DNA from: Eubacteriales bacterium
GTDB lineage: Bacteria; Bacillota; Clostridia; Oscillospirales; RGIG5299
NCBI GenBank assembly: GCA_045588575.1
Contig: JAZNEJ010000008.1
Coordinates: forward strand, 261,492 to 325,491
Direction of reading: 5' to 3'
Length of the DNA: 64,000 nucleotides
A program made the translations under genes and the position numbers. This document shows, one piece after another, positions 4,018 to 49,945 of this stretch (its first letter is position 1; each line of letters starts with the position of its first letter). The notes beneath the pieces were generated by a model. The model was not told the DNA's origin. It ran no database searches and saw nothing but the letters and a program-made list of their open reading frames with translations.

Positions 4018-6423
4018 ATGAAATACGAATACAGTGAAATAGAAAAGAAATGGCAAAAATATTGGGAGGAAAACAACAGCTTTGCGGCAAAAGACGATTA
4101 TACGCTTCCTAAATTCTACCCGCTCGTTGAATTCCCCTATCCGTCGGGCGCAGGTCTTCACGTAGGGCATCCCCGCTCATATACCGCGCTTGATATTATT
4201 GCAAGAAAGCGCCGCTTAAACGGCTATAACGTTTTATATCCTATGGGATGGGACGCTTTCGGCTTGCCCGCTGAAAACTACGCAATTAAAAATCACGTTC
4301 ACCCCAAGGATATAACCGAGCAAAACATTAACCGTTTCCGTTCTCAGCTTAAATCACTCGGTCTTTCTTTTGATTGGTCGAGAGAGGTAAACACCACCGA
4401 CCCCTCTTACTATAAGTGGTCGCAGTGGATTTTCTTAAAGCTCTTTGAAAAAGGCCTTGCCTACAAAAAAGAGATGGCGGTTAACTGGTGCACCTCCTGC
4501 AAATGCGTTTTGGCAAACGAAGAGGTTGTAGACGGCGTTTGCGAGCGTTGCGGAAGTCAGGTTGTCAGAAAGGTTAAAGAGCAGTGGATGCTTAAAATCA
4601 CCGCCTACGCCGAGCGTTTAATCAACGATTTAGACGAGGTTGACTATCTTCCCAGAGTTAAAACCCAGCAGAAAAACTGGATTGGACGTTCAACCGGCGC
4701 AGAGGTTGATTTCGTAACAACCGCAGGCGAAAAATTAAGAGTTTACACCACAAGGCCCGATACTCTCTTCGGCGCAACCTATATGGTTATTTCGCCCGAG
4801 CATCCCATAATCGAAAAGCACAAGGATAAAATTAAAAACTACGCCGACTGCGTGGCTTACAGAGAAGAAGCTGCCAAAAAGTCCGATTTCGAGCGCACCG
4901 AGCTCGTTAAGAGCAAAACCGGCGTTAAAATTGACGGCATTTCGGCATTTAATCCCGTTAACGATAGGGAAATTCCCATTTACATATCCGACTACGTTTT
5001 AATGAGCTACGGCACCGGCGCAATTATGGCCGTTCCCGCTCACGACGAGAGAGACTACGCCTTTGCAAAGGTATTTAATCTTCCCATTATTGAGGTTGTT
5101 AAGGGCGGCGATATTGAAAAAGAAGCATTCACCGATATTGAAAGCGGCGAAATGATAAACAGCGGCTTGTTAAACGGTCTTTCGGTTGCCGAGGCAAAGA
5201 AGAAAATCACCGAATGGCTCAAAGAAAACGGCAAGGGCGAGCCCAAGGTAAACTATAAGCTTCGCGACTGGGTTTTCTCACGTCAGCGTTATTGGGGCGA
5301 GCCTATTCCGCTCATCTACTGCGAAAAATGCGGCTGGGTACCCGTGCCCGAAAGCGAGCTTCCGTTAACTCTTCCCGACGTTGAGCATTACGAGCCCACC
5401 GATAACGGCGAATCACCCTTATCTAAAATTGATAGCTTCGTAAACACCACCTGCCCCAAATGCGGCGGCGCGGCAAAAAGAGAAACCGACATTATGCCCC
5501 AATGGGCAGGCTCCTCGTGGTATTTCCTCCGTTATTGCGACCCGCATAACGATAAAGAGCTCGCATCTAAGGAAGCTCTTAATTACTGGACTCCGGTTGA
5601 CTGGTATAACGGCGGTATGGAGCACACCACCCTCCACCTTCTCTATTCGAGATTCTGGCATAAATTCCTTTACGATATAGGCGTTGTTCCCACCGCAGAG
5701 CCTTATGCAAAAAGAACCAGCCACGGTATGATTTTGGGCGAAAACGGCGTTAAAATGTCGAAATCGCTCGGCAACGTAGTAAATCCCGACGATATAGTAA
5801 GAGATTACGGCGCCGACACAATGCGTCTTTACGAAATGTTTATAGGCGATTTTGAAAAAACTGCACCGTGGTCCACCTCTTCAATTAAGGGCTGCAAGAG
5901 ATTTTTGGAAAAAATCTTAAATCTTCTTGATATTACCTTTGCCGACAAAGCAGACGAAGAGGTTGAAAGAGAGCTTCATAAAACCATCAAGAAGGTAACC
6001 GAAGATATTGAAGCAATGAAGTTTAACACCGCAATAGCGGCAATGATGAGCTTTGCAAACGTCGTTTCGGAGAAAAACAGCTTAACCAAAGAGCAGTTAA
6101 AAACCTTCGTGCTTTTACTCAACCCCTTTGCACCGCACTTAACCGAAGAAATGTGGCAGCTTCTCGGCGAGGAAAAGCCCATTTGTGAGGGCGCAAAATG
6201 GCCCGAATATGAGGAAAGCAAATTGGTTGCCTCAACCTTAACGCTTCCCGTTCAGATAAACGGCAAATTAAAGGGTACAATTTCCGTTTCGCTTAACGCC
6301 GAGCAGGACGTTGTTTTGGAAACCGCAAAGGCCGATGGAAAAATTGCCGCCGCTCTTGAAGGCAAGCAAATTGTAAAAGTAATTTACGTAAAAAATAAAA
6401 TGTTAAACGTTGTAGTAAAGTGA
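4018..6423 (+). CDS. leuS: Leucine--tRNA ligase
   Basis: 801 aa. Class I HIGH-type motif ([10 protein letters not shown]) and KMSKS (VKMSKSLGN). Overall LeuS architecture. Confidence 0.97.
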
Positions 6424-6435
6424 GGAGAAAAGCAG

Positions 6436-9063
6436 ATGGAAAAAGTAACACCCATGGGTTTAAACGAAATCAGAGAGAAATATCTTGCTTTTTTCGAGAA
6501 AAAAGACCATTACAGAGAGAAAAGCGCATCGCTCGTTCCCGATGGCGACAAAGGCTTACTGCTCATAAATGCGGGTATGGCGCCGCTTAAAAAATATTTC
6601 ACGGGCGAGGCAACTCCTCCCGCACCCAGAATGACCACCTGCCAAAAGTGCATAAGAGTTTTAGATATTGAAAGAGTTGGCAAAACCAGCCGCCACGGCA
6701 CCTTTTTTGAGATGCTCGGAAACTTCTCGTTCGGCGACTATTTCAAAAGAGAGGTTTGCGCTTGGGCGTGGGAATTCCTTTTAACCGAATTAAAGCTTCC
6801 CAAGGAGCGTCTTTACGTTTCGGTTTATTTGGAGGACGACGAGGCCTATGATATCTGGACCAAGGAAATAGGCGTTGACCCCTCTCATATGGTTCGTTTG
6901 GGCAAGGCAGATAACTTCTGGGAAATAGGCGCGGGCCCTTGCGGCCCCTGCACCGAAATTTATTTCGACAGAGGCGAGGAATATTCCTGCGGCTCACCCG
7001 ACTGTAAGGTTGGCTGCGATTGCGACAGATACGTTGAATTCTGGAACCTCGTTTTCTCGCAGTTTAACAACGACGGCAACAATAACTACACCGAGCTTGC
7101 TCACAAAAATATCGATACCGGTATGGGCCTCGAAAGAATGGCTTGCATTATGCAGGGTAAAACCAGCATTTTCGAAATTGATACCGTTCAGAATATTATG
7201 AAAAAAATAAGCGAGGTAAGCGGTGTAAAATATAAGGAAAACGAAAAATCCGACCTTTCGCTTCGCATAATCACCGACCACATCAGAGGCTCCGTTTTCT
7301 TAATCGGCGACGGCGTTTTACCTTCAAACGAGGGCAGAGGCTACGTTTTGCGTAAGCTCATTCGCCGCGCGGCGCGCCACGGCAGACTTTTAAAGGTTGA
7401 AAAGCCCTTCCTTTATCAAATTGCCGAAACGGTTGCCGAGCTTAATAAGCAGGCATACCCCGAGCTCACCGAGCGTTTGGAATATATAAAAAGAGTTTTA
7501 AAGAGCGAGGAGGAGCAGTTTGCAAAAACAATAGGAAGCGGACTCGAGCTTCTTTCCGAGCTTATGAATAAGGGCGAAAAGGTAATTTCGGGCAAAGATG
7601 CTTTCCGTCTTTACGATACCTTCGGCTTCCCGCTTGACCTCACCAAAGAAATCGCCGAGGACGGCGGATTTACGGTAGATGAGGAAGGCTTTAACGCCGA
7701 AATGCAGGCTCAAAGAGAGTCTTCGAGAAAAGCAAGAGAAAAAATGGGCGATTTCGGTTGGGAAAAGCACATTTCGGTTAAAGACCTCGGCATAAAGGCC
7801 GAATTTACGGGTTATAATGAACTGGAAACCACGGCGGCGGTAAAGGCAATTTTCGTTGGCGCCGAAAGAGTTAACTCGGTTTCCGAGGGAGAGGTTGCAA
7901 CTCTCATCTTTGAAAAAACACCCTTCTACGCCGAAATGGGCGGTCAGCCCGGCGATAAGGGCAAAATTGAGGGCGAAAACTGCGCTTTAAAGGTTAAAAA
8001 CACCTTAAAGGGTGAAGATAATATAGCGCTTCATCTCGTTGAGGTTATTTCGGGCGAGGTTAAAGAAGGCGATGTTTTAACGCTTAAAGTTTGCAAAAAT
8101 AACAGAATGCGAGTTTCGAGAAATCACTCGGCAACCCACCTTCTCCAAAGAGCGTTAAAAGACGTTGCGGGCGACCATATTTCGCAGGCAGGCTCGGCGC
8201 TTTCACCCGAAAGCTTTACCTTCGATTACACCTGCTTTGAGCCGCTTTCAAACGAGGCTCTTTCAAAGGTTGAGGAGCTTGTTAATAAATTTATTTTCGA
8301 AGCAAGCCCCGTTGTAACCGAGGAAATGTCGATTGAAGATGCCAAAAAATCGGGCGCCGAGGCGCATTTTAGCGAGAAATACGGCAAAACCGTAAGAGTT
8401 GTTTCAATGGGCGCTTCAAAAGAACTTTGCGGCGGCACGCACGTTAAGAATACTGCTGAAATCGGTCTTTTCAAAATAATTTCCGATTCATCTGCGGCGG
8501 CAGGCGTAAGAAGAATTGAAGCGGTAACCGGCGATGGCGTTTTAAGAGTTTTAAACGAAAAGCAGGCACTCATTTCAAACGTAGTCGATGCCTTAAAGGG
8601 CAAGGGCGAAAAAGAGCTTTTAACCAGAGCCACCGTTGTAATGAGCGAGCTTAAAGATACCAAAACCAAGCTCGAAACAAGCGAAAGCCGCATTTCCGAA
8701 ATGCTTTACGAGGGCGTTGTTAACACCGCAACCGAGCAAAACGGAATTAAGGTTATAGTTTCTTACTTAAAGAATACCGATTTGTCAATTGCAAGAAGCA
8801 TTGGCGACAGAATTAAAGAAAGAATTTCAAACGCATCGGCAATTATTGCCTGTGAAAAAGACGGCAAGGCAAACTTCGTTTCGGTTAACGGTGTTGATGC
8901 CGTTAAGCTTGGCAGAAATGCAGGCAAAACCGTTTCCTTTGCGGCGAAGCTCACAAACGGCAAGGGCGGCGGAAAACCCGATATGGCAGTTGCGGGCGTT
9001 GGAAATATTAACGATATCGAAAAAGCGTTAGAGGAAACCAAAGCGAAATATTTCGAGATATAA
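6436..9063 (+). CDS. alaS: Alanine--tRNA ligase
   Basis: 875 aa. AlaRS motifs FFEMLGNFSFGDYF, the editing-domain HxxxH (HSATHLL) and CGGTH, and a C-terminal DHHA1-like end. Confidence 0.97.
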   Translation: MEKVTPMGLNEIREKYLAFFEKKDHYREKSASLVPDGDKGLLLINAGMAPLKKYFTGEATPPAPRMTTCQKCIRVLDIERVGKTSRHGTFFEMLGNFSFGDYFKREVCAWAWEFLLTELKLPKERLYVSVYLEDDEAYDIWTKEIGVDPSHMVRLGKADNFWEIGAGPCGPCTEIYFDRGEEYSCGSPDCKVGCDCDRYVEFWNLVFSQFNNDGNNNYTELAHKNIDTGMGLERMACIMQGKTSIFEIDTVQNIMKKISEVSGVKYKENEKSDLSLRIITDHIRGSVFLIGDGVLPSNEGRGYVLRKLIRRAARHGRLLKVEKPFLYQIAETVAELNKQAYPELTERLEYIKRVLKSEEEQFAKTIGSGLELLSELMNKGEKVISGKDAFRLYDTFGFPLDLTKEIAEDGGFTVDEEGFNAEMQAQRESSRKAREKMGDFGWEKHISVKDLGIKAEFTGYNELETTAAVKAIFVGAERVNSVSEGEVATLIFEKTPFYAEMGGQPGDKGKIEGENCALKVKNTLKGEDNIALHLVEVISGEVKEGDVLTLKVCKNNRMRVSRNHSATHLLQRALKDVAGDHISQAGSALSPESFTFDYTCFEPLSNEALSKVEELVNKFIFEASPVVTEEMSIEDAKKSGAEAHFSEKYGKTVRVVSMGASKELCGGTHVKNTAEIGLFKIISDSSAAAGVRRIEAVTGDGVLRVLNEKQALISNVVDALKGKGEKELLTRATVVMSELKDTKTKLETSESRISEMLYEGVVNTATEQNGIKVIVSYLKNTDLSIARSIGDRIKERISNASAIIACEKDGKANFVSVNGVDAVKLGRNAGKTVSFAAKLTNGKGGGKPDMAVAGVGNINDIEKALEETKAKYFEI

Positions 9064-9099
9064 TAAACCCTTCGGGAGAAATCCCGAGAAGGAGTTAAA

Positions 9100-10380
9100 A
9101 TGGAAAAATATATCATAAACGGCGGAAAAAGGCTTGAAGGAACTGTTAGGGTAAGCGGCGCAAAAAATGCGGCGTTACCTATTCTTGCGGCCACCGTGCT
9201 TTGCGACGGCGAATGCCGAATTGAGAATATTCCCGAAATAAGAGACGTTTCTCTTATGGTTGAAATTCTTTACAAAATGGGCGCCGAGGTTCGCACAATC
9301 GACAGAACCACTGTTGAAATAGACGCCTCTAAAATTTACACCACCGTTTCCCCCGGCGATATTTGCAGAAGGCTTCGCGGCTCTTATTATATGATGGGTG
9401 CGCTTTTGGGCAAATTCGGCGAATTTGAGGTTGAAATGCCCGGTGGATGCAACTTCGGAGTAAGACCTATTGACCTTCACATAAAGGGCTTGGAAGCGCT
9501 CGGCGCAAAAATAACGGTTGACGGCTGCAAAATAAAAGGCAGTGCCGCAAACGGCTTAAAGGGCGCAACCATACGTCTTTCAAAGGCGTCGGTGGGCGCA
9601 ACCATAAACATAATGCTTGCGGCAACCAGAGCCGAGGGCGTTACCGTAATTGAAAAGGCGGCAAGAGAACCGCATATAGTTGACCTTGCAAACTTCCTCA
9701 ACTCAATGGGAGCTTCAATAAGAGGTGCGGGTACCGAAATTATAAAAATAACGGGTAATCCCTCGCTTTACGGCGTTTTATATTCGATAATTCCCGACCA
9801 AATTGAAGCGGGAACCTTTATGATTGCGGCGGCTGCAACGGGCGGCAACGTTTTGGTTGAAAACCTTATTCCCAAGCATATGGAATCGCTTACCTCACAT
9901 CTTGTTGAGGCAGGCGCAAAAATTACCGAATACGATGAGGCAATAAGGGTTGAAGCCCCCGAAAGACTGAAAAATATTGACGTTATAACCGAATATTACC
10001 CCGGCTTTCCCACCGATTTACAACCTCAAATGACAACTCTTCTTGCCATTTCGGAGGGCAAGGGAAGTATGACCGAGGTTATTTGGGATAACCGCTTTAA
10101 ATATTTAGACGAGCTTCGCAAAATGGGAGCCGATATAATTAACGACGGTCAGAAGGCTTTCATAACTGGTGTTTCAAAGCTTCACGGTGCCGACGTAATT
10201 GCCTGCGATTTAAGAGCGGGTGCGGCGGTTATAATTGCGGGGCTTGCGGCCGAGGGCACAACCGAAATAGGCGAAATAGAGCGTATTGAGCGTGGCTATG
10301 AAGATATTGTCGGCAAGTTAAAATCACTTGGCGCCGATATAAACAAAACTAACATAAACGCGCCGGAAATAGCATTGTAA
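9100..10380 (+). CDS. murA: UDP-N-acetylglucosamine 1-carboxyvinyltransferase
   Basis: 426 aa. The N-terminus (INGGKRLEGTVRVSGAKNAALPILAA) and the catalytic-loop region (MPGGCNFGVRPIDLH) are typical of MurA. Confidence 0.95.
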   Translation: MEKYIINGGKRLEGTVRVSGAKNAALPILAATVLCDGECRIENIPEIRDVSLMVEILYKMGAEVRTIDRTTVEIDASKIYTTVSPGDICRRLRGSYYMMGALLGKFGEFEVEMPGGCNFGVRPIDLHIKGLEALGAKITVDGCKIKGSAANGLKGATIRLSKASVGATINIMLAATRAEGVTVIEKAAREPHIVDLANFLNSMGASIRGAGTEIIKITGNPSLYGVLYSIIPDQIEAGTFMIAAAATGGNVLVENLIPKHMESLTSHLVEAGAKITEYDEAIRVEAPERLKNIDVITEYYPGFPTDLQPQMTTLLAISEGKGSMTEVIWDNRFKYLDELRKMGADIINDGQKAFITGVSKLHGADVIACDLRAGAAVIIAGLAAEGTTEIGEIERIERGYEDIVGKLKSLGADINKTNINAPEIAL

Positions 10381-10392
10381 AGGAAACGGAAA

Positions 10393-11205
10393 ATGTCTTT
10401 CTTTTTTCAAACGCTTTACAGCGGAAGCGAGGGAAATTCTTGCCTCGTGGGCTGTAACGGAGATTACATTTTAATAGATGCGGGCAAAAACAGCAAAGCG
10501 GTTTTAAATGCGCTTTCCTCTCTTTCGCTTTCAATAAGAGATATTTCCGCAATTTTCGTAACTCACGAGCATTCCGACCATATTGGAGCAATTGAGGTGC
10601 TTGCAAGACGATATAAAATTCCTGTTTTTGCAAATCCCGAAACGGCATTTTTAATGGCTTCAAAGCAATTAAGCCTTCCCGAAACGTCAATTTACCGCTT
10701 GGAAAACTACGATACGGCAAAAAAAGGGGCTTTAAGCGTAACCCCGTTCCCCGTTCCTCACGATTCTGTGAGCTGTTCGGGCTACATAATAGAGGCGGAA
10801 GGGAAAAGGCTTGTTACCGCAACCGATATGGGACATCTTTGCGGCGATTTTGCCCAAGCGGCAAAGGATGCCGACGCCGTTTTAATAGAATCGAATTACG
10901 ATTTAAAAATGCTTGAAAACGGAAGCTATCCCGCTTATTTAAAAAAGCGAATAAGCTCGAAAAACGGGCATTTATCCAATGCCGATTGCGCCGAGGCGTG
11001 CTCCGTTTTGGCAATGCGAAAAACCAAAAAATTTGTGCTTGCCCACCTTTCGAAAGAAAACAATACGCCTGAATCGGCGTTTAATGCATCACACGGGGCG
11101 CTTACGAAAAAAGGTGCGAGTGTAACGAAAAGCGAGGAGGAAAAAGGCGACGTGCTGCTTTTAACCGCGCCACGATACCTCTGCTCGCCAAAAATAATTA
11201 TTTGA
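10393..11205 (+). CDS. MBL-fold metallo-hydrolase (YycJ/WalJ-like)
   Basis: 270 aa with the HxHxDH motif (THEHSDHIG) and later His/Asp ligands. Confidence 0.8.
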   Translation: MSFFFQTLYSGSEGNSCLVGCNGDYILIDAGKNSKAVLNALSSLSLSIRDISAIFVTHEHSDHIGAIEVLARRYKIPVFANPETAFLMASKQLSLPETSIYRLENYDTAKKGALSVTPFPVPHDSVSCSGYIIEAEGKRLVTATDMGHLCGDFAQAAKDADAVLIESNYDLKMLENGSYPAYLKKRISSKNGHLSNADCAEACSVLAMRKTKKFVLAHLSKENNTPESAFNASHGALTKKGASVTKSEEEKGDVLLLTAPRYLCSPKIII

Positions 11206-11214
11206 GGAAAAGCT

Positions 11215-11691
11215 ATGTTTAACGTCAGGCTTGTTTGCATAGGAAAGCTTAAAGAAAAATATTTAACCGATGCCGTTAAGGAATATGAAAAGCGGCTCAC
11301 GGCTTATGCAAAATTTGAAATAGTTGAGCTTAAAGAAAGCTTTTTGCCCGAAAATCCGAGCGAAAAGGAAATTAAAGCGGCGCTTTCAAAGGAAGCGGCG
11401 GATATTATAAAAGCTTGCGACGGAAGCAAGATAATTTTGCTTGCAATTGAGGGTAAAATAATTTCTTCCGAGGAATTATCCGAAAAAATTGCAAAGCTCG
11501 GCGAAACGGGATTTTCGTCAATTTCCTTCGTAATCGGCTCTTCTTTCGGAATAGACGAGGAATTAAAGAAAAAGCACGATAAAATTTCAATGTCGAAAAT
11601 GACTTTTCCGCATCAGCTTGCAAGAGTAATGGTTTGCGAGCAAATTTATAGAGCTTTTTCAATTTTAAATAACGGCAAATATCATAAATGA
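11215..11691 (+). CDS. rlmH: 23S rRNA (pseudouridine1915-N3)-methyltransferase RlmH
   Basis: 158 aa, SPOUT family. The C-terminus FVIGSSFG..SKMTFPHQLARVMVCEQIYRA is typical of RlmH. Confidence 0.9.
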   Translation: MFNVRLVCIGKLKEKYLTDAVKEYEKRLTAYAKFEIVELKESFLPENPSEKEIKAALSKEAADIIKACDGSKIILLAIEGKIISSEELSEKIAKLGETGFSSISFVIGSSFGIDEELKKKHDKISMSKMTFPHQLARVMVCEQIYRAFSILNNGKYHK

Positions 11692-11699
11692 GGTGCATT

Positions 11700-11954
11700 A
11701 TGGAACATATTTACCGCCCCAGAGGCGTTTGCACGAGAGAAATGCGAATAACGGTTTCCGACGGTGTTGTTAAAAGCGTTATAATGCTCGGCGGCTGCCA
11801 AGGAAACACAAAAGGAATTTCAAAGCTCGTTGAAGGAATGAAAGTTTCCGACGTAATTGAGCGTCTTTCGGGCATAACCTGCGGCTTTAAGCCCACATCG
11901 TGCCCAAATGAGCTTGCAAAAGCATTAAAAGAGATAACGGAGGCCGAAAAATGA
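11700..11954 (+). CDS. Small TSCPD-domain protein (TIGR03905-like, function unknown)
   Basis: GGCQGNTKGISKL..GITCGFKPTSCPNELAKAL matches the small Cys-containing TSCPD family as I recall it. The ATG at 11700 follows a GAGGTG Shine-Dalgarno (SD) sequence. Confidence 0.6.
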   Translation: MEHIYRPRGVCTREMRITVSDGVVKSVIMLGGCQGNTKGISKLVEGMKVSDVIERLSGITCGFKPTSCPNELAKALKEITEAEK

Positions 11955-13654
11955 ACTATCTTGAAAACTATAAAAAGTGGCTTGAATCAGATGCGGTAGA
12001 TGCCGCCACCAAAGAGGAGCTTTTGAAAATTAAAGATGACGAAAACGAGCTTATAATGCGCTTTTCCGACATAATGCCCTTCGGAACGGCAGGGCAAAGA
12101 GGCGTTATGGGTGCGGGCCTTAACCGTCTTAACCTTTACACCGTGCGCTACACCACCAAAGCGCTTGCAAACCTCATAATAAAAGAGGGAAAAGAAGCGA
12201 TGAAAAAGGGTGTTGTAATAGCTTTTGACTGTCGCATAAATTCCAAGGAATTCGGTTTTGCCGCCGCCGAAATTTTAGCATCAAACGGCATTAACGTAAT
12301 GATTTTTAACGAAATAACTCCCACTCCCGTTCTTTCCTACACCATAAGAAAAACGGGCGCAATAGCGGGTATTAACATAACGGCAAGCCATAATCCTCCT
12401 GAATATAACGGCTATAAGGTTTATTGGTCAAACGGCGCTCAAATGCCGCCCGACCACGCCGCTGAGGTTGCAAACGAGCTTAAAGTTTTAGATATTTTTG
12501 AAGATTGCAAGATAGAAAAAACCGAAAAAAGCGGCAAAATTAAAATTTTGAACACCAAATATGAAAAGCTTTTCTGTAAAGAGGTTTTAAAAAGAAGCAT
12601 AAATCATAAGGCGGCAAAGGAAACCTCCTTAGAGGTTTATTACTCTCCGCTTCACGGAACGGGACTTCGCGCAGTGCCTGCGGTTTTGAAAAAAATCGGC
12701 GTTAAGGTAAACTGTGTTGAGGAACAAATGGTGCCCGACGGCTATTTTACCACCGTTTCTTCGCCTAATCCCGAAAACGTTTCGGCATTTGAATTATCGG
12801 TTAAAAAGGCGGAGAAAAAGGGAAGTAAGGCAGACCTTTTAGTAGCAACCGACCCCGATGCCGACAGAATAGGCGTAATGGTAAAGCATAACGGCGAATA
12901 CGTTGCTTTAAACGGCAATCAAACCGGCGTTTTGCTTCTTTACTATATAATTTCGGCAAAAAAAGAAAAGGGAAAGCTTCCAAAAAATGCGGGAGCCGTT
13001 TCAACAATTGTTTCAACTCCTCTTGCCGAGCAAATTGCAATTAAAAACGGCGTAAAATTTGCATCAACCTTCACCGGATTTAAGTTTATTGCCGAGCAAA
13101 TCGACGAATGGCTCGGAAAAACGAAATTCATCTTCGGCTTCGAGGAAAGCTTCGGCTATATGGTGGGCGACTATGCGCGAGATAAAGACTCAATAGGCGC
13201 CGCAATGATGGTTTGCGAAGCCGCGGCGTATTATAAAAAGAGCGGCAAAACGTTAATTGATGTTTTAAACGGCATCTATGAAGAATACGGATATTACGGC
13301 GAAACCACCGATAATATAATGATGAAGGGCATAGACGGAGCCGAAAAAACCAAAAAGCTTATGGAAACTCTCCGAGGCGATATAACCGAAATCGGCGGCG
13401 AGAAGATAGTTAAAATTGCCGACTACAAGACGGGTGAGATTAAAGACGTCAAAACGGGCAAAACCGAGCCTACGGGAATGGAAAGCTCCGACGTTTTGAA
13501 GTTTTTCACCAAAAACGGCTCTGCAATTTGCGTGCGTCCTTCGGGCACCGAGCCCAAGGTTAAGGTTTATTATCTCATTAAGGGCAAGGACGAAAAAACC
13601 TGCAAAAAGCTCACTGAAAAGATGAAAAAAGATATAGATTCATTGGTAAAATAA
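11951..13654 (+). CDS. Phosphoglucomutase/phosphomannomutase family phospho-sugar mutase
   Basis: 567 aa. Active-site serine loop ITASHNPPEYNGYK, metal loop ATDPDADR, and GFEESFG. Confidence 0.9.
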   Translation: MNYLENYKKWLESDAVDAATKEELLKIKDDENELIMRFSDIMPFGTAGQRGVMGAGLNRLNLYTVRYTTKALANLIIKEGKEAMKKGVVIAFDCRINSKEFGFAAAEILASNGINVMIFNEITPTPVLSYTIRKTGAIAGINITASHNPPEYNGYKVYWSNGAQMPPDHAAEVANELKVLDIFEDCKIEKTEKSGKIKILNTKYEKLFCKEVLKRSINHKAAKETSLEVYYSPLHGTGLRAVPAVLKKIGVKVNCVEEQMVPDGYFTTVSSPNPENVSAFELSVKKAEKKGSKADLLVATDPDADRIGVMVKHNGEYVALNGNQTGVLLLYYIISAKKEKGKLPKNAGAVSTIVSTPLAEQIAIKNGVKFASTFTGFKFIAEQIDEWLGKTKFIFGFEESFGYMVGDYARDKDSIGAAMMVCEAAAYYKKSGKTLIDVLNGIYEEYGYYGETTDNIMMKGIDGAEKTKKLMETLRGDITEIGGEKIVKIADYKTGEIKDVKTGKTEPTGMESSDVLKFFTKNGSAICVRPSGTEPKVKVYYLIKGKDEKTCKKLTEKMKKDIDSLVK

Positions 13655-13662
13655 ATAAAAAT

Positions 13663-13687
13663 CCGTCCGTTTATAATAGACGGACGG
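13663..13687 (+). terminator. Hairpin after the mutase gene (weak terminator or processing structure just 5' of the tRNA)
   Basis: CCGTCCG (13663-13669) pairs with CGGACGG (13681-13687) around an 11-nt loop. Only a weak T-run follows. Confidence 0.4.
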
Positions 13688-13693
13688 CAATTT

Positions 13694-13770
13694 CCGCCGT
13701 TAGCTCAGTTGGATAGAGCGTTGGATTCCGATTCCAAAGGCCGGGGGTTCAACTCCTCTACGGCGGGCCA
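13694..13770 (+). tRNA. tRNA-Arg (anticodon CCG), CCA encoded
   Basis: Folded by hand: acceptor CCGCCGT/ACGGCGG; D-arm GCTC-AGTTGGATA-GAGC; anticodon arm TTGGA-TTCCGAT-TCCAA (CCG at positions 34-36); variable loop AGGCC; T-arm GGGGG-TTCAACT-CCTCT (two G.U pairs); discriminator G; CCA. Confidence 0.9.
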
Positions 13771-13806
13771 AAAAATAACCAAGCCCACGGGGTTTGGTTA
13801 TTTTTA
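13771..13806 (+). terminator. Rho-independent terminator T1 (bidirectional type) after tRNA-Arg(CCG)
   Basis: An A-run, then AATAACCAAGCCC-ACG-GGGTTTGGTTATT (13-bp stem with one G.U pair), then TTT. Confidence 0.8.
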
Positions 13807-13957
13807 ATTTAAGCAAAGCTTAAAAAGAGGAGTTGAACTGTGAATGGGAGCGAGGGTGAGAAAACGAAACCGAGCGACAGAGGAACAGTCCTGCGGACTG
13901 TTACGACATTCACCCAAAGGAGCTTGCGACTGCGATAGACTCCTCTACGGCGGGCCA

Positions 13958-13990
13958 AAAAAAGCAAGCCCGAAGCGGCTTGCTTTTTGT
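13958..13990 (+). terminator. Terminator T2 after module 1 (a different hairpin in the same position)
   Basis: An A-run, then AGCAAGCC-CGAAGC-GGCTTGCT, then TTTT. Confidence 0.75.
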
Positions 13991-14144
13991 TTGGTTTATG
14001 CCTGCTTAAAATGAGGAGTTGAACTGTGAATGGGAGCGAGGGTGAGAAAACGAGACCGAGCGACAGAGTAACAGTCCTGTGGACTGTTACGACATTCACC
14101 CAAAGGAGCGTTGCGACTGCGATAGACTCCTCTACGGCGGGCCA

Positions 14145-14180
14145 AAAAATAACCAAGCCCACGGGGTTTGGTTATTTTTA
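14145..14180 (+). terminator. Terminator T1 copy after module 2
   Basis: Identical to 13771-13806. Confidence 0.8.
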
Positions 14181-14331
14181 ATTTAAGCAAAGCTTAAAAA
14201 GAGGAGTTGAACTGTGAATGGGAGCGAGGGTGAGAAAACGAGACCGAGCGACAGAGAAACAGTCCTGTGGACTGTTACGACATTCACCCAAAGGAGCTTG
14301 CGACTGCGATAGACTCCTCTACGGCGGGCCA

Positions 14332-14366
14332 AAAAATAACCAAGCCCACGGGGTTTGGTTATTTTA
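14332..14366 (+). terminator. Terminator T1 copy after module 3
   Basis: Same hairpin as 13771-13806, with a T-run one nt shorter. Confidence 0.8.
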
Positions 14367-14465
14367 ATTTAAGAACGATTAAAAAGAGGAGTTGAAATTT
14401 ACTGTCATTTTTAATAAAAAAACACTGCATTTTTTGTAATAGGTTACAAAATAACCGCATAAATC

Positions 14466-17513: not shown

Positions 17514-17541
17514 AGAAAACCACCCAATCGGGTGGTTTTCT
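17514..17541. terminator. Bidirectional terminator hairpin
   Basis: AGAAAACCACCC-AATC-GGGTGGTTTTCT (12-bp stem), with A-runs upstream and a T-containing arm. It sits between the 16470 gene end and the outermost tRNA 3'-end copy. Confidence 0.75.
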
Positions 17542-17582
17542 TGGCGCACTTTAAGGGACTACTGCTCGCCTGCGGGCTCGGT
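17542..17582 (-). repeat. Outermost copy of the tRNA-Arg(ACG) 3' end (19 nt) plus about 22 nt of the module core arm (truncated module, att-like junction)
   Basis: TGGCGCACTTTAAGGGACT at 17542-17560 is identical to 19941-19959 and 20102-20120. The adjacent ACTGCTCGCCTGCGGGCTCGG resembles GCTGCTCGCCCCAAGGGCTCGG at 19960-19981. Confidence 0.85.
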
Positions 17583-17591
17583 TTGGCGCAA

Positions 17592-17768
17592 AGCGATGCC
17601 AGAACTGATATTTATGCCGTTGGCGTTTTGCTTAACGTAATGCTAACGGGAAAGCATCCGAGCGAAAAACTGGCAGATGGCAAAGCGGGTAAAATAGTGC
17701 GAAAATGCACCGCTATAAACCCCAATGAACGTTATCAATCGGCAAAAAATCTTGCAGCTGCATTATAG
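17592..17768 (+). pseudogene. 3' fragment of a Hanks-type Ser/Thr protein kinase gene (catalytic subdomains IX-XI only)
   Basis: The translation DARTDIYAVGVLLNVMLTGKHP...CTAINPNERYQSAKNLAAAL matches the kinase C-lobe. The N-terminal ~200 aa are absent and the frame runs into the repeat junction. Confidence 0.75.
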
Positions 17769-17774
17769 TAAAAA

Positions 17775-17808
17775 AGCCTTGCGTAAAAGCAAGGCTCTTT
17801 CTTTTTTC
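17775..17808 (+). terminator. Rho-independent terminator
   Basis: AGCCTTGC-GTAAAA-GCAAGGCT followed by CTTTCTTTTTT. Confidence 0.75.
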
Positions 17809-17843
17809 ATAAATTTACAAAAAGGCAAGAAAAGTGCTGTAAT

Positions 17844-17872
17844 TTGACATATATAGTTAAAAGTAGTATAAT
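17844..17872 (+). promoter_or_regulatory. Consensus sigma-A promoter
   Basis: TTGACA (17844-17849), a 17-nt spacer, then TATAAT (17867-17872). Confidence 0.65.
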
Positions 17873-17902
17873 ATTTAAAATTTTTAACGAGAAGGGTTTA
17901 TT

Positions 17903-18490
17903 ATGGGATTGTTAACTAGCCTCATTATAAAAGGAGTTACTACAGCAGCAGCCAAGTCAACGATTAAAACTGTAGGGAAAACTGCTATAGAGGTCATAGA
18001 CGCAAAATCGAAAAGCGAGGCACAAAAAGATAATTCGGTTGTAAAAAATGGTATATTACACATAAAACCACCTCATCCAAGCGAGGAATATCTTGATAAA
18101 AACGCTTTAGATGTTTCAATAGAGTTGTTAGGCGTTGGTTTTGAAAGTGTTGAATTAAAAGCCGTAAAAAAGCTTGGAGAGCGTGGAATAAATAAATACG
18201 GAAATGTTCGCTCAATTTCTATCAACGGAGACAAAGACTTTTTTGGAATAAGAAAAGTTCCTGCGTCATCTCATATTGTTATCGAGTTCCTTGATTTCAA
18301 GGATGGGTTAAATCCTGAAACTTATACTAAAGTTAAGCGATTAAAAACAGGTAAAATATGTAGCATTAATGATTTAGAAGATAAAAGCAACAATATTAGT
18401 AATGCTAAACGATATTGCATATATTGTGGAGAACCTATAACAAATGGAAACGCAAAATTTTGTTTTGCGTGCGGGAAAGCAATAAACTAA
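17903..18490 (+). CDS. Hypothetical protein with a C-terminal zinc-ribbon
   Basis: 195 aa. The C-terminus is CIYCGEPITNGNAKFCFACGKAI (CxxC-N11-CxxC). No family is recognised for the rest. Confidence 0.6.
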   Translation: MGLLTSLIIKGVTTAAAKSTIKTVGKTAIEVIDAKSKSEAQKDNSVVKNGILHIKPPHPSEEYLDKNALDVSIELLGVGFESVELKAVKKLGERGINKYGNVRSISINGDKDFFGIRKVPASSHIVIEFLDFKDGLNPETYTKVKRLKTGKICSINDLEDKSNNISNAKRYCIYCGEPITNGNAKFCFACGKAIN

Positions 18491-18545
18491 AAAGTCGCAA
18501 ACAATTTCTCGCAGTTGTGTTATAATTTTAAAAGAAGGTATTATA

Positions 18546-19655
18546 GTGAAAAGAGCATTACCCATTGTGTTAGCGGCAATAATATGTTTATTGTTGGTTG
18601 GCTACGCGGGTTTACATAAACCGGAACCAAGCATTCCTAACAGTTCTATCAATTCTAGTGAACCTAGCGGTTCAGCCGAGTCAAACAGTTCTACCGAGAC
18701 AAGCAGCTCTGCTGAGTCAAGCACACCAACAACATCGAGCGAGCCTGTGGATAATACCTCTTCGGAAAACTCATCCGAAGAACCAACCACTTCGAGCAAA
18801 CCCGTAGACAACAACTCTTCAAACAACTCGTCCGAAGCGTCCAATACTTCAAGCGGTCCTGAGGATAATACATCTTCGGAAGGTTCCTCCGAAGCACCAA
18901 CTACATCAAGCAGACCTTCGGATAATACGTCTTCAAACAGCTCATCGCAAACATCCTCCGAGGCACCAACAACGTCGAGTATTCCCTCGGAAAGTTCCAA
19001 TTCCCGCCCAGAGAGTTGGCTTGATATTTCCGGCCTAACCTACACTCAAGCTGATGTTGGTAAGGTTGTTGGGTATACCTCCGTGTTTGGCGAAGATATT
19101 ACGGTTGTTTCGGTTGAAGAAGGAACCACGGCGGATGGCAGAAAATTTATTGAAGTCAATTTTTCGTTCCATACATCATCACACGGTTCCTCTGTCGTAA
19201 AAATTGAGTGTGAGTATTGCCATGAATTTCCTTGTCCCAATGGCGGCGATGAGGACTGTCCCGAATACGATCCTCTAAAAGACGGTTCCGTCACCTGCCA
19301 ACAATGTGGTAGACCTTATGGCGATGGTTATAACGGCACTTGTCATAGTAAAATCGATTGGGAACATGGCGGTTTTACTTTCTGTAACCACCTCGACGAT
19401 CTTTCTGAAAGAATTGGGGTATATGAGCAGGAAAAAGTCGAAATCGGAGGCGGATATTATAATCGCCTAAAGGTATATACTTTGGAGAAAAGTGATGAGC
19501 AACAAGAGCTTTTTGTTCAAGCATTTGAAAACGCTTTCGGTTATACTCCTATCCACATCAATTGTATGTCAATTGGAAAACATTTAATTGGTAACAGCGA
19601 TACCCCTCAAGAAGTTTTTTGCTATTTTCGCTATTACGAAGAGACAGAACCTTAA
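18546..19655 (+). CDS. Membrane-anchored or exported protein with a Ser/Thr/Glu/Pro-rich repeat linker and a Cys/His-rich C-terminal domain
   Basis: 369 aa, GTG start. N-terminal hydrophobic helix, about 4.5 copies of a 19-aa repeat, then CEYCHEFPCPNGGDEDCPEYD..CQQCGRPYGDGYNGTCHSKIDWEHGGFTFCNH. Confidence 0.65.
   Translation: MKRALPIVLAAIICLLLVGYAGLHKPEPSIPNSSINSSEPSGSAESNSSTETSSSAESSTPTTSSEPVDNTSSENSSEEPTTSSKPVDNNSSNNSSEASNTSSGPEDNTSSEGSSEAPTTSSRPSDNTSSNSSSQTSSEAPTTSSIPSESSNSRPESWLDISGLTYTQADVGKVVGYTSVFGEDITVVSVEEGTTADGRKFIEVNFSFHTSSHGSSVVKIECEYCHEFPCPNGGDEDCPEYDPLKDGSVTCQQCGRPYGDGYNGTCHSKIDWEHGGFTFCNHLDDLSERIGVYEQEKVEIGGGYYNRLKVYTLEKSDEQQELFVQAFENAFGYTPIHINCMSIGKHLIGNSDTPQEVFCYFRYYEETEP
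18731..18990 (+). repeat. In-frame ~57-bp tandem coding repeats (TSSxPxDNxSSxxSSExxx)
   Basis: Repeats read from the translation: TSSEPVDNTSSENSSEEPT / TSSKPVDNNSSNNSSEASN / TSSGPEDNTSSEGSSEAPT / TSSRPSDNTSSNSSSQTSSEAPT / TSSIPSESS. Confidence 0.8.
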
Positions 19656-19778
19656 ATGGTCAGATTAACTGGCTCTTGTTCGGACGGAACAAAAGCCAAT
19701 CTTGCTGGCACATCGTTTTATGATAATATAACCTATTAATTTGCGCATTTTAGTCTTCTCTGGAGACGATAGAAAAAT

Positions 19779-19865
19779 CCTTGGCGATGGTTAAATAATG
19801 GCACTTGTCACGGACTTATTGACTGGGCTAACGGTGGAAAACTGATTTGCAATCACTACGATTAA
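19779..19865 (+). pseudogene. Decayed duplicate of the Cys-rich motif region of the preceding gene
   Basis: CCTTGGCGATGGTTAAATAATGGCACTTGTCAC...AATCACTACGATTAA parallels 19312-19398 (PYGDGYNGTCHSKIDWEHGGFTFCNH). It has a 2-nt deletion and reads ..NNGTCHGLIDWANGGKLICNHYD*. Confidence 0.6.
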
Positions 19866-19902
19866 TATAATATAGTCTTAAACAAATATTTCAGCCCCTT
19901 TG

Positions 19903-19940
19903 AGCCAATAACCTTAACTGGTTATTGGCTCTTTTTATTT
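19903..19940 (+). terminator. Rho-independent terminator (plus-strand sense)
   Basis: AGCCAATAACC-TTAACT-GGTTATTGGCT followed by CTTTTTATTT. Confidence 0.75.
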
Positions 19941-20101
19941 TGGCGCACTTTAAGGGACTGCTGCTCGCCCCAAGGGCTCGGCCACTCGCGGCTCTGACCG
20001 TTCCCCGAACGGTCATTCACTACCGCTCGCCTTCGAGTCCCTTAATTTAAAATTGACGAACAAAAAAATAAGCAGCCACCCCAAAGGGTAACTGCTTATT
20101 T
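19941..20101 (-). repeat. tRNA-Arg(ACG)-linked module. In tRNA sense it reads terminator, linker, antisense T-arm, 72-nt core, 19-nt tRNA 3'-end copy.
   Basis: On the plus strand, TTCGAGTCCCTTAA at 20032-20045 is an inverted copy of the tRNA T-loop, T-stem and acceptor start. The 19-mer is at 19941-19959. The terminator hairpin is at 20068-20099. Confidence 0.9.
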
Positions 20102-20178
20102 TGGCGCACTTTAAGGGACTCGAACCCCTGACCTTCTGGTTCGTAGCCAGACACTCTATCCAGCTGAGCTAAAAGTGC
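20102..20178 (-). tRNA. tRNA-Arg (anticodon ACG), CCA encoded
   Basis: The reverse complement folds as acceptor GCACTTT/AAAGTGC; D-arm GCTC-AGCTGGATA-GAGT; anticodon arm TCTGG-CTACGAA-CCAGA (ACG at positions 34-36); variable loop AGGTC; T-arm AGGGG-TTCGAGT-CCCTT; discriminator G; CCA. Confidence 0.92.
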
Positions 20179-49639: not shown

Positions 49640-49945
49640 GCATGACTGAATAATGCGATGATGCGGGAGGTTGCCGCAAAGGGTTACTGCACCTTTTCGG
49701 GTTTTTCCGCGGAGTATGTCCGATGCATGACGTCGGGCGGCAGGCAATTTGTACACAGATTAAAAACGGGCCATCTTTGAGCCTTGTCTTTTAATTGATG
49801 TGGTGTGTTATTCCGATTTTTTTCATAATGTAAAAAAGTCGGATTTATTGTGTAAACACAAAAAACGCACGGAGCGATGTGTAGCGTAAGCGCTTGCGAA
49901 TAGGTCAATAAAAAATCTCAAAAGAGAATTTTAGGAGGCGTAAAA
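49640..49945 (+). promoter_or_regulatory. ~300-nt structured leader of the S10 operon with two terminator-like hairpins
   Basis: Hairpin 1: CCGCAAAGG-N9-CCTTTTCGG then GTTTTT (49674-49706). Hairpin 2: TCCGATTTTTTT-N8-AAAAAAGTCGGA then TTTATT (49812-49849). Confidence 0.5.

Follow-up and report, generated by a model that had tools for sequence, protein, structure and literature searches.

A conserved structured element behind two tRNA-Arg genes of a Clostridia bacterium tracks its host tRNA and resembles the enterobacterial RtT repeats in design

Directly behind each of the two tRNA-Arg genes of the window (the whole 64,000-nucleotide stretch of DNA analysed here, in which ARAGORN and Rfam call only tRNA-Arg(CCG) and tRNA-Arg(ACG)) lies a non-coding module of about 105-135 nt, on the strand of the tRNA and just behind the tRNA terminator, whose ends are copied from that tRNA. 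The element is neither a product of chance nor a phage scar; it is real, conserved and structured. Based on the sequence comparisons described below, we read the module as an RtT-like, tRNA-linked structured element, a tRNA-trailer RNA that would evolve in concert with its tRNA, and we give this reading a probability of roughly 0.55.

The module behind tRNA-Arg(ACG) has the following parts, together with those of a truncated second unit 2.4 kb away.

20102-20178, minus strand: tRNA-Arg(ACG) with encoded CCA, host of the module (ARAGORN; Rfam tRNA model, 65.4 bits)
20065-20102, minus strand: A-tract, GC hairpin and U-tract (17 pairs), terminator-like, immediately 3' of tRNA-Arg(ACG)
20046-20064, minus strand: AT-rich linker
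20032-20045, minus strand: antisense segment TTAAGGGACTCGAA, 14 nt, matching the reverse complement of tRNA positions 54-67 exactly; makes up the 5' side of the predicted outer stem P1
19960-20031, minus strand: core of 72 nt, GC/purine-rich, with the CCCTTGGGGCGAG motif; aligns over its full length to the CCG-type model
about 19996-20014, minus strand: perfect hairpin GACCGTTC GGG GAACGGTC within the core
19941-19959, minus strand: 19-mer AGTCCCTTAAAGTGCGCCA, exact copy of tRNA-Arg(ACG) positions 58-76
19902-19931, no strand assigned: hairpin past the module, with its U-tract on the plus strand; scores as a plus-strand terminator
17561-17582, minus strand: remnant of a second ACG-type core, CCGAGCCCGCAGGCGAGCAGT, about 22 nt, ending at a kinase-gene fragment
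17542-17560, minus strand: third exact copy of the ACG 19-mer
17514-17541, minus strand: terminator-like hairpin 3' of the third 19-mer (terminator scan)

The order and coordinates of these parts in the original prediction proved correct throughout, as did the truncated copy at 17582->17542, so that the locus consists of one full and one truncated unit. The hairpin at 19902-19931 had to be reassigned: since its U-tract is on the plus strand, it looks like the terminator of the convergent gene at 18546-19655 and not of the module. The 19-mer occurs at exactly three sites in the window (20120-20102, 19959-19941 and 17560-17542, all on the minus strand), where shuffled sequences lead us to expect 0.02 matches with up to 3 mismatches, and in the module it provides the 3' strand of P1 followed by an unpaired tail made of the acceptor 3' strand and GCCA. 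No cloverleaf is recognised in the modules by ARAGORN or the Rfam tRNA model, either as a tRNA gene or as a pseudogene.

The same design had been claimed for the CCG locus, and we find it there as a tandem array of 3.4 units (three full 187-bp units and a partial fourth), on the strand of its own tRNA as at the ACG locus.

13694-13770, plus strand: tRNA-Arg(CCG), host of the sister array (ARAGORN; Rfam)
13771-13957, plus strand: unit 1, with hairpin and linker, antisense segment at 13826-13838, core, and 19-mer at 13939-13957 (sequence; covariance model)
13958-14144, plus strand: unit 2, with a different terminator at 13959-13988, antisense segment at 14012-14024 and 19-mer at 14126-14144 (sequence; covariance model)
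14145-14331, plus strand: unit 3, with antisense segment at 14200-14212 and 19-mer at 14313-14331 (sequence; covariance model)
14332-14397, plus strand: partial unit 4, with hairpin, linker and antisense segment AGAGGAGTTGAAa, after which the similarity stops

The CCG 19-mer, ACTCCTCTACGGCGGGCCA, and the CCG antisense segment, AGAGGAGTTGAAC, each occur four times, the former at the locus as a whole and the latter downstream of the tRNA. Every unit has a terminator-like hairpin, and promoter scans detected no promoter-like site in the module linkers.

Homologues of the phosphoglucomutase (PGM) gene that precedes tRNA-Arg(CCG) pointed to two other uncultured Clostridia species, L082 and L087, whose PGM proteins are 67% and 69% identical to that of the window. 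Each has one CCG-type module at the orthologous PGM-tRNA-Arg(CCG) site, where the order behind the tRNA is terminator, antisense segment, core, 3' copy and terminator; the orthologous modules obtained from relatives are all of the CCG type. The tRNA-Arg(CCG) genes of the three species differ from each other in the T arm and the acceptor stem, and in each species the module ends match its own tRNA, so the claim that the flanks track the host tRNA holds between species as well as between loci. The antisense segment is the reverse complement of tRNA positions 53-65 in the window CCG modules, 52-67 in L082 and 52-66 in L087, and the direct copy consists of 19 nt from position 58 at both window loci and in L082, while in L087 it comprises A58 and 17 exact nt with a single mismatch, at position 59. 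Between species the core is 74-82% identical, the tRNA 75-88% and the spacer between tRNA and module 46-57%; neutral DNA at such a distance would lose its alignability, and we therefore consider the core to be under constraint. The original prediction had argued for one architecture over a chance local duplication, and the orthologous modules in two species, with a core as conserved as the tRNA, bear this out.

The gene order LeuRS, AlaRS, EPSP synthase, metallo-beta-lactamase fold protein, SPOUT methylase, TSCPD protein, PGM, tRNA-Arg(CCG) and module is common to the three species, and this synteny (window 4018-13770 against L082 and L087) stops right past the module, with all downstream genes being different. 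The window MnmE has a best match of 61% identity, and at the mnmE loci of related genomes none of 80 has a tRNA there. An S10-Clostridia ribosomal protein leader at 49650-49747 (plus strand, 43.3 bits), ahead of a ribosomal protein operon, supports a placement in the Clostridia. Scans of viral, genome and metagenome collections with the exact patterns of both module types returned either nothing or two chance matches inside a coding gene. Four short-read metagenome contigs of relatives (L085, L086, L088 and L089) stop inside or just past the tRNA or the module, which suggests that assemblies tend to break at the repeats and that public contigs contain too few of them.

The comparison between species also bears on whether the modules encode a small basic peptide, like the Tpr annotated in E. 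coli RtT. ATG-initiated ORFs of 40-56 codons do cross the modules and are called as proteins in public data, with "proteins" of 49-56 amino acids at 13844-14014 and in the 14218-14367 region of the window and at 11874-12041 of L083 (P0121-P0123). The frame, however, does not survive the comparison of species: indels of 2, 1 and 3-5 nt disrupt it, and no more than the first 3 residues and a short patch near the C-terminus can be aligned. In addition, the ACG module has no equivalent ORF, and it is the stems and not the codons that are conserved. A search of the protein collection with the module ORFs found matches in this genome and the L082 species only. We regard these ORFs as spurious, since genes whose frame is broken in this way are not credible, and a coding function as highly improbable.

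Integrative elements typically show direct repeats of a tRNA 3' end beginning in the T loop, and the modules might accordingly be att-site scars left by elements or prophages attaching at the tRNA 3' end. Two of the ACG 19-mers do bracket 2.4 kb (17561-19940), and the synteny with the relatives ends just past the module. Against this, neither the bracketed stretch nor the surrounding 20 kb or so contains an integrase, excisionase or phage gene; L082 and L087 have the module, and not an empty attB, at the orthologous site; one end of the 2.4-kb stretch is located inside a module core and a kinase gene and is not a site-specific junction; and an attL/attR origin would not account for the terminator duplications seen in L087 and the window. 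Searches of the ORFs from 11.9 to 35 kb against Pfam, PHROGs and NCBIfam revealed no integrase, reverse transcriptase or other mobility gene, and the modules matched nothing in phage, plasmid and viral collections, BLAST included. Where the original prediction had conceded that relatives might lack modules and that the two loci might be relics of unrelated integrative elements, we find modules in the relatives and an integrative-scar origin that is very unlikely and largely refuted.

Encoded between the second and third ACG 19-mers are part of a kinase, a protein with a zinc ribbon and a Ser-rich protein that looks secreted. The kinase fragment (17560-17768, plus strand; weak Pfam match) is the C-terminal part of a Ser/Thr protein kinase domain, and its 5' part is absent exactly where the truncated third copy starts, which points to a junction, left by a deletion or an insertion, within an ACG-type module. 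The 369-aa protein encoded at 18546-19655 (plus strand) has an N-terminal hydrophobic segment, long Ser/Thr/Pro-rich repeats and a Cys-rich C-terminal half, and matches no family in Pfam, PHROGs or NCBIfam.

Joint folding of the modules, as the original prediction had proposed, was performed with RNAalifold on five CCG-type sequences from three independent lineages and gave a consensus structure in which 96% of the cells are paired, compared with 33-43% in slid controls. Its outer stem, P1, in which the antisense segment pairs with the beginning of the 3' copy, has 93% of its cells paired; inside it are an invariant stem GUGAAU/AUUCAC around a small branch and a 10-bp hairpin, and a small 3' hairpin. 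Seven pairs show compensatory changes (three in P1, two in the main hairpin, one in the small branch and one in the 3' hairpin), G-U pairs are present in the stems, and the covariation score was reached by none of 500 shuffles. The covariation is supportive of a structured RNA and, coming from three lineages, stops short of being conclusive; that in P1 would in part also arise from templated copying or gene conversion off the tRNA gene, with no RNA function involved. An alternative T-arm-like helix inside the CCG module has one compensatory pair and was matched by 39 of 500 shuffles. In folds of single sequences, P1 is recovered in the three CCG units and is absent from the MFE fold of the ACG module.

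To relate the two module types, a covariance model built on the CCG type (R1) was run over the window with filters off, and its best non-self match was the ACG module (24.9 bits, E 4.9e-4), in an alignment that runs end to end, at exactly the boundaries of the original prediction (20045->19941), with the module ends paired. The tRNA ends alone score 7-12 bits with R1, and the ACG module aligns as a CCG module minus its 5' side branch. R1 identified no other copy in the window, and in 1.5 Mb of related genomes only the two orthologues. Taken as plain sequence similarity, the core features that had been proposed as shared are not significant: the ACG and CCG cores align no better than shuffled sequence. 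We accept that the ACG and CCG modules are related forms of one element, a relation that is seen only with a sequence-plus-structure model.

RtT repeats, known in E. coli ever since its first tRNA operons were sequenced, are the closest known kind of element. In the tyrT-tyrV region the 178-bp repeats correspond to the Rfam family RtT (RF00391; gene rttR), with four units scoring 133-137 bits. The 3' end of a unit is the last 19 nt of tRNA-Tyr, from position 58, and its start, GGGGAAGGAT, is the reverse complement of positions 59-68 and forms the outer stem of the Rfam structure. Searches for diverged cores added two more settings of RtT: E. coli, Salmonella and two species of Klebsiella have it near eptB, where its host is tRNA-Pro(CGG), and Providencia has it behind tRNA-Lys(UUU). 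In the Tyr, Pro and Lys units the local tRNA is matched at both ends, by the antisense segment and by the 3' copy, the direct copy being 19 nt from position 58 for Tyr and Pro and 18 nt from position 59 for the Providencia Lys unit. The proK locus is laid out as tRNA, terminator, unit, terminator and truncated unit, just like the window. Flank tracking, terminators and a truncated last unit therefore belong to a known kind of element and are not tied to tRNA-Arg, and the suggested restriction to arginine tRNAs falls with the Enterobacterales units behind tRNA-Tyr, tRNA-Pro(CGG) and tRNA-Lys(UUU). The wider idea of a family that targets tRNA T arms survives as one architecture tracking its tRNA; nothing shows the mechanistic targeting.

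The enterobacterial units (L081 867-1295, L095 659-792 and L096 679-807) contain further tRNA-derived pieces beyond the outer stem that is annotated. The entire T arm (48-68) is present as an antisense copy with the T-loop complement altered to TGAGAA, and the other piece is a sense copy of positions 49/50-58, which also tracks the host: AAGGTTCGA for Tyr, GGAGGTTCGA for Pro and CAGGTTCGA for Lys. In E. coli a REP-type element, scored by Rfam as naRNA4, truncates the second unit at proK (L095 886-967, minus strand). In Providencia a degenerate tRNA-Lys-like copy, GGGTCGTTAGCTCAGTTGGTAGAAT...GGTTCAACCC..., lies between two tRNA-Lys genes (L096 420-500) and is not called by ARAGORN; the sequence behind it, GGGTGAGACCGAAGGTCGAAG, looks like the beginning of an RtT unit.

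The Clostridia modules are called RtT-like and not members of RF00391, since neither Rfam's model nor our own detects them. Against positive controls of 97-137 bits, the RF00391 model gave no match in the window at its gathering threshold (45 bits), and at E<=10 it gave none either, both over 7 kb and on stretches of 190 nt taken from the window and L082. Our model of the Tyr, Pro and Lys RtT units (R2, filters off) gave 22 window matches at E<=10, among which neither module type is found. In the reverse direction, R1 placed one E. coli RtT unit at 8.8 bits (E 2.5), a match with corresponding boundaries that is not significant, and alignments of the RtT and Clostridia cores alone were no better than shuffles. 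We had also considered sequence homology through shared motifs (CGAGCG, CCCnnnGGGCGAG and the perfect hairpin), a proposal that was dropped in the face of the shuffle test and two covariance-model tests. On these sequence comparisons, the resemblance to RtT is one of design, without demonstrable sequence descent.

The closely related cores that the Enterobacterales have behind unrelated tRNAs (Tyr, Pro and Lys), with their ends re-matched, indicate that the core moved between tRNA loci at some time. This raises the question of a non-autonomous, MITE-like element that inserts behind tRNA genes and rebuilds its ends from the target tRNA, for example by recombination in the conserved T-loop bases with an enzyme encoded elsewhere and acting in trans. 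The left edge of the direct copy, which is position 58 in all cases except Lys (59), and the RtT copy number of 1 to 10 per E. coli genome would agree with such insertion. However, dispersed copies are absent from the window and from 1.5 Mb of relatives, the CCG module is at the same orthologous site in three species and has diverged like the tRNA, and there are no phage, plasmid or viral matches and no candidate enzyme nearby. Such an element may have given rise to the kind; nothing shows recent mobility here, and we consider this explanation unlikely.

The modules could instead be a repeat at the DNA level with no role as RNA, in which an inverted and a direct duplication of the tRNA 3' end are homogenised by gene conversion or unequal crossing-over, and which may supply additional terminators or a barrier downstream of a gene with strong transcription. 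The block duplicated in L087 and the window takes in the terminator besides the 19-mer, which indicates a recent duplication or conversion, and the hairpin in every unit would suit such a role; moreover, the antisense segment tracks tRNA positions (57, and in L087 also 59) that are not shared by the 3' copy of the module itself. Conversion from the tRNA gene, however, cannot conserve a core of 72-105 nt that has no tRNA counterpart and is 74-82% identical between species, nor does the reading account for the compensatory changes in the inner hairpin. In addition, a discrete RNA accumulates from the E. coli counterpart, as reported by papers that cite Bösl and Kersten (1991). We consider a purely DNA-level origin unlikely.

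If the modules are RtT-like trailer RNAs, as we prefer to read them, the module RNA would fold into a long hairpin in which the antisense T-loop/T-stem copy pairs with the first 8-10 nt of the 3' copy to form P1, enclosing the conserved stems and one perfect hairpin of 7-10 bp, and the acceptor 3' strand with NCCA would be left as a tRNA-like single-stranded tail. With no promoter-like site in the linkers, we infer that the module RNA is made by read-through of the tRNA terminator; given that this terminator is strong and stands between tRNA and module, the RNA may be rare. Owing to its tRNA-like tail, its 3' end could be set by the tRNA 3'-trimming enzymes, which stop at the tRNA CCA. Unequal recombination between the repeated blocks of 19-mer plus terminator would allow the arrays to grow and shrink and would also keep the 3' copy identical to the tRNA, while selection for pairing would keep the antisense segment matched.

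P1 alone is not the full explanation, since the match between antisense segment and tRNA extends to positions 52-57, outside the part used by P1. It is complementary to 13-16 nt of the tRNA (within positions 52-67) compared with 8-10 nt of the module's own 3' copy, with predicted duplex energies of −21 to −30 kcal/mol and −14 to −15 kcal/mol, respectively, and in L087 it agrees with the tRNA at two positions, 57 and 59, that the module's own copy is unable to match or does not match. MFE folds of tRNA plus module gave a "swapped acceptor" in all seven read-through constructs, E. coli and Providencia included, in which the tRNA 5' acceptor strand pairs with the module 3' copy and the tRNA T arm with the antisense segment. 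Most of this preference, and at the ACG locus all of it, is kept when the antisense segment is shuffled, and we therefore treat the fold as weak evidence. It may be that the working unit is the tRNA-plus-module read-through transcript itself: the antisense segment would capture the T arm and the module copy of positions 58-76 would pair with the 5' acceptor strand, yielding an alternative tRNA-shaped RNA with a substitute 3' end, an old cross-phylum design for sensing or disposing of terminator read-through or for presenting a free tRNA-type CCA end. This model, built on predicted folds, we hold to be improbable.

Among known systems, 3'ETS-leuZ of E. coli is a 3' external transcribed spacer of a tRNA that has its own function, and the modules are like it in being a candidate functional RNA in the trailer of a tRNA transcription unit, but the Clostridia module is separated from its tRNA by a terminator, and spacers of this type are not known to have a copy of the tRNA end, an antisense T arm or tandem repetition. 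The attL/attR repeats of integrative elements share with the modules the duplicated tRNA 3' end from the T loop and the variable DNA downstream, whereas the Clostridia unit of 140-190 bp is free of recombinase and mobile-element genes, is conserved across species and has a conserved structured core and an antisense segment inside.

The likeness to RtT extends much further. Both elements are directly downstream of a tRNA and on its strand, start with a T-arm antisense segment that forms the outer stem, end with a copy of the last nucleotides of the host tRNA from the T loop, and have ends that track the host; both have a core of about 70-105 nt that is rich in GC and purines and contains one perfect hairpin, occur in tandem arrays with a truncated last unit, and are kept at orthologous sites, RtT across genera, and the terminators before and after the unit at proK are found in the window as well. 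The kind itself is not new, its core design having been described for E. coli tyrT decades ago. In the literature the rtT RNA is said to originate from the tyrT transcript and its function is stated as unknown, the sole proposal there being an effect on the amino-acid starvation response. What the modules add is this very specific design in a distant phylum, behind other tRNAs, conserved between species and missed by the current Rfam model, which suggests that selection acts on the design itself or that a common mechanism produces it. Annotation pipelines overlook RtT-like elements and make spurious small proteins of them. Together with their other hosts and their other phylum, the Clostridia modules differ from the enterobacterial units, which add the sense copy of tRNA positions 49/50-58, in having no such copy, and they offer an independent set of sequences for sorting out which features of RtT matter.
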